Shown in pieces: positions 15,547 through 17,222 of a stretch of 64,000 nucleotides of DNA. The position numbers and the translations under genes were made by a program. Under the pieces are notes generated by a model. It was not told where the DNA came from. It saw only the letters and a list, made by a program, of their open reading frames with translations, and did not search any database. This DNA comes from Escherichia coli (lineage in GTDB: Bacteria > Pseudomonadota > Gammaproteobacteria > Enterobacterales > Enterobacteriaceae). Each line of letters starts with the position of its first letter. Positions within the stretch are counted from its first letter, which is position 1. Location of the stretch: assembly GCF_045037415.1 (NCBI RefSeq), contig NZ_CP173438.1. One strand, written 5' to 3'.

Positions 15547-16077
15547 ATGGCTATCACTGGCATCTTTTTCGGCAGCGACACCGGTAATACCGAAAATATC
15601 GCAAAAATGATTCAAAAACAGCTTGGTAAAGACGTTGCCGATGTCCATGACATTGCAAAAAGCAGCAAAGAAGATCTGGAAGCATATGACATTCTGCTGC
15701 TGGGCATCCCAACCTGGTATTACGGCGAAGCGCAGTGTGACTGGGATGACTTCTTCCCGACTCTCGAAGAGATTGATTTTAATGGTAAACTGGTTGCGCT
15801 GTTTGGTTGTGGCGACCAGGAAGATTACGCAGAATACTTCTGCGATGCATTGGGCACCATCCGCGACATCATTGAACCGCGCGGCGCAACTATCGTTGGT
15901 CACTGGCCAACCGCGGGCTACCACTTCGAAGCGTCAAAAGGTCTGGCTGATGATGACCACTTTGTCGGTCTGGCTATCGACGAAGATCGTCAGCCGGAAC
16001 TGACCGCTGAACGTGTAGAAAAATGGGTTAAACAAATTTCTGAAGAGCTGCATCTCGACGAAATTCTCAATGCCTGA
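15547..16077 (+). CDS. fldA: Flavodoxin 1
   Basis: ORF 15430..16077 trimmed to [16 protein letters not shown]..., 176 aa flavodoxin signature. Confidence 0.9.
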
Positions 16078-16083
16078 TGTGAT

Positions 16084-16110
16084 GCGGCGTAGACTCATGT
16101 CTACGCCGTA
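16084..16110 (+). terminator. Hairpin downstream of fldA
   Basis: Inverted repeat gcggcgtagac...gtctacgccg; weak T-tract. Confidence 0.35.
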
Positions 16111-16282
16111 TTAATAGATAATGCCAATCAAAATAATTGCTACAAATTTGTAACTTTTGCTGTTGTACCTGTACAATGTCCCGGTGTTCAAGTGGCCTTG
16201 CCGTTGTAAATGTAAGCTGTGCCACGTTTTTATTAACAATATTTGCCAGGGACTTGTAGTTTTCATTTAGGCGTGGCAATTC

Positions 16283-16301
16283 TATAATGATACGCATTAT
16301 C
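16283..16301 (+). promoter_or_regulatory. Fur box in the uof-fur promoter
   Basis: tataatgatacgcattatc resembles the Fur consensus GATAATGATAATCATTATC; overlaps the uof start. Confidence 0.6.
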
Positions 16302-16373
16302 TCAAGAGCAAATTCTGTCACTTCTTCTAATGAAGTGAACCGCTTAGTAACAGGACAGATTCCGCATGACTGA
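16287..16373 (+). CDS. uof: Upstream-of-fur leader ORF, 28 codons
   Basis: atg at 16287 gives MIRIISRANSVTSSNEVNRLVTGQIPHD; its stop overlaps the fur ATG (atgactga). Confidence 0.75.
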   Translation: MIRIISRANSVTSSNEVNRLVTGQIPHD

Positions 16374-16812
16374 TAACAATACCGCCCTAAAGAAAGCTGG
16401 CCTGAAAGTAACGCTTCCTCGTTTAAAAATCCTGGAAGTTCTTCAGGAGCCGGACAACCATCACGTCAGTGCGGAAGATTTATACAAACGTCTGATCGAT
16501 ATGGGTGAAGAAATTGGTCTGGCTACGGTATATCGCGTACTGAACCAGTTTGACGACGCTGGTATCGTCACCCGCCACAATTTTGAAGGCGGTAAATCCG
16601 TATTTGAACTGACACAGCAACATCACCACGATCACCTGATCTGCCTCGACTGCGGTAAGGTTATCGAATTTAGTGATGATTCCATCGAAGCGCGTCAGCG
16701 TGAAATCGCCGCAAAACATGGCATTCGCCTGACTAACCACAGTCTCTATCTTTACGGTCACTGTGCCGAAGGCGATTGCCGCGAAGATGAGCACGCGCAC
16801 GAAGGCAAATAA
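16366..16812 (+). CDS. fur: Ferric uptake regulator
   Basis: 148 aa; HHDH and CxxC metal-binding motifs. Confidence 0.95.
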   Translation: MTDNNTALKKAGLKVTLPRLKILEVLQEPDNHHVSAEDLYKRLIDMGEEIGLATVYRVLNQFDDAGIVTRHNFEGGKSVFELTQQHHHDHLICLDCGKVIEFSDDSIEARQREIAAKHGIRLTNHSLYLYGHCAEGDCREDEHAHEGK

Positions 16813-16827
16813 GCCAGCCTGAACGAG

Positions 16828-16856
16828 AAAAGCCAACCTGCAGGTTGGCTTTTTTA
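16828..16856. terminator. Bidirectional terminator between fur and chiQ
   Basis: agccaacc-tgca-ggttggct followed by tttttt, A-run upstream. Confidence 0.6.
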
Positions 16857-16895
16857 TACAAGGGAAATAAGAAAAGCGAGAGTTACAGCTCTCAC

Positions 16896-17222
16896 TTATT
16901 TGTTATTACTGCGAATTTCCTGCCAGACCTTATCACAATCGGCTTTCACCGCCTGATCATTTCCGGTTTGCGTTGCCTGAATGCACTGCTGATAATCCAG
17001 TACGCGGACACTTTCCTGCTCGGCAAACTGCTGATGTTGTTTCTCTTTCTTCAGCACGTTTAACACGCTCTGGCAGGCTTCAATTTTTTCCGGCGAACCT
17101 TGCGCGGTGTTGATACAGGCGCTGTAAGCCTCTTTCAGACGACTGTCTTCCTGTGGCGCGGTTGATTGCGCACAAGCCACCAGCCCCGATGCCATCATGG
17201 CGATGAGAATCAGTTTTTTCAT
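16896..17222 (-). CDS. chiQ: Lipoprotein ChiQ (YbfN)
   Basis: 108 aa; signal peptide with lipobox LVAC; directly downstream of chiP. Confidence 0.85.
   Translation of the reverse strand: MKKLILIAMMASGLVACAQSTAPQEDSRLKEAYSACINTAQGSPEKIEACQSVLNVLKKEKQHQQFAEQESVRVLDYQQCIQATQTGNDQAVKADCDKVWQEIRSNNK

Follow-up and report, generated by a model that had tools for sequence, protein, structure and literature searches.

Introduction

Fur is the master iron regulator of enterobacteria, and de Lorenzo et al. reportedly found, in 1988, that its iron-loaded form bound at the operator of fur itself. The gene is moderately autoregulated, with a Fur box that overlaps the -10 element of promoter Pfur-a, and is activated by OxyR and SoxRS. 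It belongs to ybfE-fldA-uof-fur, a complex operon with three promoters, in which uof is listed by EcoCyc among leader peptides; Pfur is placed within the uof open reading frame (ORF) and Puof upstream of it, both published fur start sites falling inside uof and a separate uof start being found upstream. Translation of fur is coupled to that of the 28-amino-acid uof, and RyhB lowers Fur synthesis by blocking initiation on uof; the RyhB mutations G44C/C45G abolish repression of uof and fur, G44 and C45 thus being required. According to published work, it is through this leader that iron starvation reduces Fur synthesis post-transcriptionally. [quoted passage not shown] A wrinkle in the simple coupling model is that, in one study, RyhB lowered the short fur mRNA and not the level of the uof-fur mRNA.

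Several systems resemble this one in part. In the CsrA-repressed iraD leader, and in the GcvB-targeted thrL and ivbL leaders, a short upstream ORF sets expression of the downstream gene through its translation, and a trans regulator acts on the start of that ORF rather than on the main gene, as RyhB does on uof. However, thrL and ivbL use transcription attenuation, whereas uof has no terminator after it, its internal hairpin lacking a following U-run. The Fur operators of other iron-regulated genes likewise lie over core promoters, comparable to the 16-of-19 match placed here over a -10 hexamer; the uof-fur operator differs in that it regulates the repressor's own gene and also holds the start codon of an upstream ORF. 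In Yersinia enterocolitica uof is absent; Yersinia RyhB1 still represses fur without uof, and is predicted to pair within the coding sequence of fur.

Here we examine the uof-fur leader within a 64-kb stretch of Escherichia coli DNA (hereafter, the window). An earlier note, made from the sequence, had proposed a uof ORF translationally coupled to fur with a Fur box on its start, and had suggested comparison with the published architecture. That comparison agrees: the peptide has 28 residues, its ORF overlaps the fur start, UCA stands at codon 6, Puof lies upstream of uof and Pfur inside it. With the E. coli K-12 leader of Vecerek, Moll and Blasi (2007) in particular, the locus, the 28-residue peptide, the overlap, the Fur box and UCA-6 are all the same, and no difference was found, the leader being 100% identical to that of the listed RefSeq E. 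coli genomes. The coupling and the fur autoregulation that the note invoked are both published, as is the position of the Fur box over the Pfur-a -10, and RefSeq and the NCBIfam model NF011344 identify the ORF as uof. The window itself therefore holds nothing new: it carries the known uof-fur leader with its known Fur operator. Our modest additions concern the lineage-restricted distribution of the uof frame, the lack of constraint on its peptide, and a conserved hairpin within it.

Results

The window carries the gene order seqA-ybfF-ybfE-fldA-uof-fur-chiQ-chiP, according to the RefSeq feature table of one identical record, and our reading of the ORFs around uof gave ybfF, ybfE, fldA, the 28-codon ORF, fur, chiQ and chiP; the fldA-uof-fur synteny is present in the feature table of the identical region. 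A 341-bp leader query (16080-16420) was matched in 5424 of 5426 complete E. coli genomes (at 99% identity or more in 5202), and in every record among the matches listed RefSeq places "uof: fur leader peptide" and fur beneath the match. These matches, together with the feature table, establish that the window is E. coli chromosome and that the feature is already annotated. All features described below lie on the plus strand, unless otherwise stated. Upstream of the leader, fldA (flavodoxin 1; 15547-16077, mapped from the RefSeq annotation) is a source of read-through transcripts carrying uof; downstream, the 148-residue product of fur (16366-16812, annotated in RefSeq) matches Pfam PF01475 (FUR) at E = 1.1e-49.

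The uof ORF comprises 28 codons from ATG to TGA (16287-16373), and appears in the ORF list, in RefSeq and in NCBIfam alike. Its peptide, MIRIISRANSVTSSNEVNRLVTGQIPHD, scores 85.2 bits against the equivalog model NF011344 ("fur leader peptide"; cutoff 71, E = 1.8e-24) over the full length of 1-28/28, and a Pfam search with the peptide returned no family. The overlap claimed in the earlier note is borne out: the fur ATG (16366-16368) and the uof TGA (16371-16373) share the 8-base element ATGACTGA (16366-16373), which is invariant in our alignment of 25 genera. As 62 ORFs of at least 20 amino acids overlap the surrounding 4 kb, a length of 28 codons is not in itself beyond chance, and it is annotation, the family model and the experiments in the literature that vouch for uof, and not ORF length. 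Moreover, the fur codons ATG ACT GA themselves close both non-fur frames, with stops at +1 and +5, such that any open upstream frame automatically overlaps the fur start.

The uof ATG also occupies positions 5-7 of a 19-mer, TATAATGATACGCATTATC (16283-16301), that shares 16 of 19 bases with the 19-bp Fur-box consensus GATAATGATAATCATTATC, and covers a -10 hexamer in addition to the start codon. The interval given in the earlier note, from 16283, begins with this 19-mer. No other site with three or fewer mismatches occurs on either strand of the 64-kb window, and a match was obtained in 0 of 100 dinucleotide-preserving shuffles. The placement of the uof start inside a Fur-box-like sequence is confirmed. 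The box is identical in Salmonella-type leaders, departs from the consensus at 3-4 positions in Citrobacter and Enterobacter, and at 5-7 positions, mostly in the right arm, in remoter genera; the core TATAATGA..CGCATTA is kept in most Enterobacteriaceae and in Yersinia. For this locus the anatomy, annotation and family membership, the significance and conservation of the Fur box, and its overlap with a promoter are direct observations of the present analysis.

The promoter concerned is Pfur (16260-16288), which was recognized by a scan at 10 of 12 positions and consists of a -35 element TTTTCA (16260-16265), a 17-nt spacer and the -10 element TATAAT (16283-16288). The Fur box has this -10 hexamer at its left end; the A and T of the uof ATG belong to the hexamer too, and mutants of the uof start codon must leave it intact. 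Transcription is predicted to start about 7 nt downstream of the -10, at around 16294-16296, within codons 3-4 of uof; GTTTTCA and TCTATAATGA hardly vary among the 25 genera aligned. Further upstream, a consensus scan located a promoter-like sequence corresponding to Puof (16148-16177; TTGTAA, an 18-nt spacer, and TACAAT at 16172-16177), with a predicted start near 16184, and the block CTGTACAAT is at least 90% conserved across the same genera. Since the Fur-repressed Pfur transcripts start inside uof, they cannot carry its AUG, and only transcripts from Puof, or those reading through from fldA, can undergo uof coupling. The notion of a Fur box on the uof start thus holds as an overlap on the DNA, and fails as a control of uof translation: the box coincides with the Pfur -10, and the box and the uof start act on different transcripts, the box on those that lack the uof AUG. 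Separately, an AT-rich stretch, ATTAATAGATAATGCCAATCAAAATAATTGCTACAAATTTGTAAC (16110-16154), abuts the Puof -35 and resembles an OxyR tetrad site (ATAG...CAAT...ATTG...); we take this to be where OxyR activates fur.

To follow the leader beyond E. coli, we collected 80 fur loci from GTDB species representatives across Enterobacterales, and anchored their leaders on the octamer TATAATGA upstream of fur. The promoter/Fur-box block is near-invariant across these 80 genomes, the octamer being exact in 72 of 81 leaders, including those of taxa whose frame extends for only 4-16 codons; the uof frame, in contrast, is restricted by lineage. A frame of the E. coli type, defined by a stop at +5 and an ATG at -79, -82 or -85 relative to fur, is found in Escherichia, most Citrobacter, Enterobacter, Kosakonia, Kluyvera and Phytobacter, as well as in Leclercia, Pluralibacter gergoviae, Pseudescherichia, Siccibacter and Superficieibacter. 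In Mangrovibacter, Cedecea neteri and one Buttiauxella the ORF ends at +1 in the other frame. Premature ends occur at -30, as a 16-codon ORF, in Salmonella enterica arizonae, C. sedlakii and two others; at -39 in K. oxytoca and Raoultella; at -37 in Atlantibacter; and after four codons (MRRK*) in Pantoea. Finally, in Buttiauxella, Dryocola and one Enterobacter, the TATAATGA-ATG frame is that of fur and continues into it. In the leaders of Enterobacter sp. R1, Buttiauxella izardii, B. agrestis and Dryocola, where the TATAATG ATG is in frame with fur and no stop intervenes, use of that ATG as a start would add an N-terminal extension of 22-23 residues to Fur.

The same pattern was met in individual contigs. 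The Fur variant that is presumably that of S. Typhimurium is indexed in 69,362 blocks of the collection, and six contigs carrying it were examined; in all six, an identical Fur box is followed by the 16-codon ORF MIRIILSAISVTSLMK, with its stop at -30 and no stop/start overlap with fur. All five of the K. oxytoca-type contigs (5/5) stop at -39. The box of Y. enterocolitica, TATAATGAGACGCAATTGA, reads M-R-R-N-stop, in agreement with the published absence of uof there. The fur leaders of Salmonella, K. oxytoca and Yersinia thus resemble that of E. coli in the promoter/Fur-box block, the position of the hairpin described below, and the fur Shine-Dalgarno (SD) sequence and start, and differ from it in that the ORF opened by TATAATG stops at -30, at -39 and after four codons, respectively, and does not overlap fur. 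The earlier note had held that lack of conservation of either element in related genomes would count against its reading; the Fur box is conserved, the small ORF only in some genera, and this partial lack does not overturn the identification in E. coli.

Whether the frame is maintained by selection can be approached from its openness and from its codons. The ATG frame stays open as far as fur in 78% of 54 unique Enterobacteriaceae leaders, compared with 27% in mononucleotide shuffles, and with 17% and 41% for the other two frames of the same leaders; the E. coli frame is present in 33 of the 54. This suggests some selection for an open frame, within a statistic that is confounded by shared ancestry. 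By contrast, synonymous changes make up only 28% of the codon differences in uof within the 79-nt class, as sampled by 23 unique leaders (20% and 7% in the off-frames), compared with 96% for codons 1-60 of fur from these genomes, and the central part of the peptide is hypervariable and differs in length between leaders. Judged by these codon comparisons, the uof peptide is not under protein-like constraint, which is expected if only the act of translation matters and not its product. Two further variants of the reading frame were observed. An in-frame GTG at uof codon 17 opens a 12-codon mini-ORF, VNRLVTGQIPHD (16335-16373), that overlaps the fur start and occurs in nearly all Enterobacteriaceae, including those without full-length uof. 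No obvious SD precedes this mini-ORF, whose conservation falls where the 3' arm of the hairpin and the fur SD lie. In Enterobacter asburiae, a synonymous change in fur codon 2 gives the junction ATGACAGA in place of ATGACTGA, which removes the uof stop and leaves a 49-codon leader ORF overlapping fur out of frame.

In the 25-genus alignment, the conserved blocks are the two promoters and the fur SD and start, between which lies a variable middle that retains an inverted repeat, ACTTC...GAAGT. In E. coli this corresponds to a 7-bp hairpin, TCACTTC-ttctaat-GAAGTGA (16318-16338; uof codons 11-18), which is predicted in both leader folds. Single-sequence folds of other leaders place a hairpin at the same position with varied stems, namely ACUUCC/GGAAGU, CUUCCC/GGGAAG, GCUUCG/CGGAGC, UGCUCC/GGAGCG, GCCC/GGGC and CUCCC/GGGGG, and AGGCU/AGCCU in Dickeya and Pectobacterium. 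We realigned 50 leaders with a covariance model derived from 14 sequences; in this alignment, which leans towards the structure, 89.8% of hairpin cells are paired, as opposed to 33-53% after the partners have been shifted by 1-3 columns. Four of the eight pairs change on both sides, giving 12 such cells, a number reached by 0 of 500 shuffles, and the core CUUC/GAAG is almost invariant across the 50 leaders; as the core scarcely varies and the alignment is fitted to the structure, the support from covariation is moderate. The MAFFT alignment misregisters the 5' arm between length classes, and was left out of the pair counts. An alignment-free comparison of folding energies across 68 unique leaders gave a mean z of -1.61 for the segment from -58 to -21, with 43% of leaders below -2, against mean values of -0.57 to +0.27 and 0-1% below -2 for three control segments.

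The loop of this hairpin ranges from 3 to 7 nt, and reads TTCTAAT in E. coli and TCTAAT in Salmonella, the one base fewer being exactly what breaks the uof frame in the latter, where the resulting TGA stop lies in the 3' arm. Together, these comparisons show a hairpin that is maintained both in leaders with an intact uof frame and in those where it is broken. It may possibly contribute to the stability of the short Pfur mRNA, or serve as a ribosome- or Hfq-related element. We found no description of this hairpin in the literature searched; the structure probing of Vecerek, Moll and Blasi (2007) may show it.

With respect to RyhB, the leader contains GAGCAA (16306-16311; uof codons 7-9), a perfect 6-nt complement of RyhB U42-C47 that includes the partners of G44 and C45. 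The RyhB query was verified, scoring 83.1 bits against Rfam RF00057, and was found at 100% identity in 5424 genomes, between yhhY and yhhX. A local 24-nt scan of RyhB nt 34-60 against the leader did not single out any part of it, the best leader window ranking at 0.115 of the 64-kb background of energies, and in an independent published benchmark the RyhB-uof-fur duplex could not be predicted by any of the methods tried; the case for pairing comes from the published mutations. A full-length RyhB-leader duplex of about -46 kcal/mol was discarded, because shuffled targets scored equally well, an artefact of unlimited internal loops. The other point of iron-linked control, codon 6 (TCA; 16302-16304), is the published position of MiaB/ms2i6A-dependent decoding, and is limited to Escherichia, the C. 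freundii group, Pseudescherichia and a few others; in Enterobacter this codon is CCA.

The fur SD has a weak core, AGGA (16352-16355), that lies 10 nt before the ATG and pairs with the anti-SD at -4.0 kcal/mol; the sequence ACAGGA is invariant across the 25 genera. The corresponding energy for uof is -3.6 kcal/mol, such that both sites are weak in relation to that of fldA (-6.5 kcal/mol). Leader folds computed from either predicted 5' end are no better in energy than shuffles (z = +0.46 and -0.09), and do not convincingly sequester the fur ribosome-binding site.

Discussion

The feature is, with very high confidence, the known uof-fur leader of E. coli, in which two layers of control are laid over the same bases. 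At the DNA level, iron-loaded Fur bound at 16283-16301 would block RNA polymerase at the proximal fur -10, and thereby effect autoregulation. At the RNA level, the longer transcripts, whether initiated at the upstream promoter or read through from fldA, carry the AUG at 16287 and would allow translation of uof, and ribosomes that reach the uof UGA, five bases beyond the AUG of fur, would deliver or enable initiation on fur. As the fur SD is weak and poorly spaced, this step would draw on ribosomes that have finished uof, and we infer that termination and reinitiation at ATGACTGA, together with ribosome-driven opening of the leader, form the physical basis of coupling. During iron starvation, RyhB would pair just downstream of the uof start, between GAGCAA (16306-16311) and U42-C47, and block initiation on uof, and UCA codon 6 would be poorly read when the Fe-S enzyme MiaB is inactive. 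For uof translation and its coupling to fur, for the effects of RyhB and MiaB, and for Fur binding, this account draws on the literature; the transcription start positions used for Puof and Pfur are predictions.

A different account of the same leader treats the ORF as a by-product. Selection would then keep the -10/Fur operator (TATAATGA..CGCATTA), the hairpin and the fur ribosome-binding site, and uof would be a lineage-specific overlay that exerts little control over fur in most enterobacteria, and perhaps modest control in E. coli. The ATG would be conserved as part of TATAATG, and the stop supplied free by the fur codons, at which both non-fur frames end automatically. This would explain why the octamer is exact in 72 of 81 leaders, even where the frame spans only 4-16 codons, and why a Salmonella-type Fur box identical to that of E. 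coli can precede a 16-codon ORF that ends at -30 for want of a single loop base. The stop at -39 in K. oxytoca and Raoultella, the sequences MRRK* in Pantoea and MRRN* in Yersinia, and the fusion to fur in Buttiauxella and Dryocola point in the same direction, as do the lack of a coding signature in uof, the conservation of the hairpin regardless of frame, and the repression of fur by Yersinia RyhB1 even without uof. Nevertheless, the published evidence from reporters and mutations that uof is translated and coupled to fur in E. coli weighs against a pure by-product, as do the enrichment of the open frame (78% versus about 27% expected) and the repeated length changes of 3 nt (79, 82, 85 nt) that preserve it, and we regard this account as rather unlikely. 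That uof encodes a small protein with an independent function is far less credible still: uof has an annotated coding sequence and a dedicated NCBIfam model, but the share of synonymous differences (28%, compared with 96% in fur and 7-20% in the off-frames), the hypervariable and length-changing middle of the peptide, the absence of a Pfam family, and the fact that the conserved C-terminal residues fall on the 3' arm of the hairpin and on the fur SD render such a function extremely improbable. The Fur box may, in addition, act as a roadblock for polymerases that come from Puof or fldA, as the operator lies in the path of these transcripts, some 100 bp downstream of the predicted Puof start; autoregulation and coupling would then be linked mechanistically, and not only positionally. 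No report of such a roadblock was found in the literature searched, however, and autoregulation of fur by Fur is described as moderate, which makes this a distinctly unlikely extension.

With the two-layer uof-fur leader as the preferred reading in E. coli, the comparative data can be accommodated, tentatively and at somewhat under even chances, by distinguishing the parts of the leader according to their breadth. The -10/Fur operator and the hairpin would be selected across the order, and the uof frame, with coupling and the MiaB circuit, would be an overlay restricted to Escherichia, most Citrobacter, Enterobacter and their allies, lost in Salmonella through a single-base change in the hairpin loop. 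If so, the control of fur in Salmonella, Klebsiella and Yersinia would fall outside the E. coli model, with the hairpin as the general post-transcriptional element. In any event, the frame is broken in these three genera, to which the E. coli circuit should not be extended.

Several minor elements were encountered around the leader. An 84-amino-acid ORF on the minus strand (16067-16321) was rejected as a gene, as it lies in a variable intergenic region and carries no annotation. At a permissive threshold no Rfam family covers the leader, and the weak matches to STnc370/STnc430 (3' of fur) and snR67 (inside fldA) fall far below gathering scores and are attributed to chance. Directly after the fldA stop, a 9-bp stem-loop, GGCGTAGAC-tcat-GTCTACGCC (16086-16107), lacks a U-run and was not called by the terminator scan, as would fit partial read-through of fldA transcripts into uof-fur. 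Directly after the fur stop, AAAAGCCAACC-tgca-GGTTGGCTTTTTT (16827-16856) resembles an intrinsic terminator of fur; the simple scan did not list it, and instead called a weaker site at 16874-16897.
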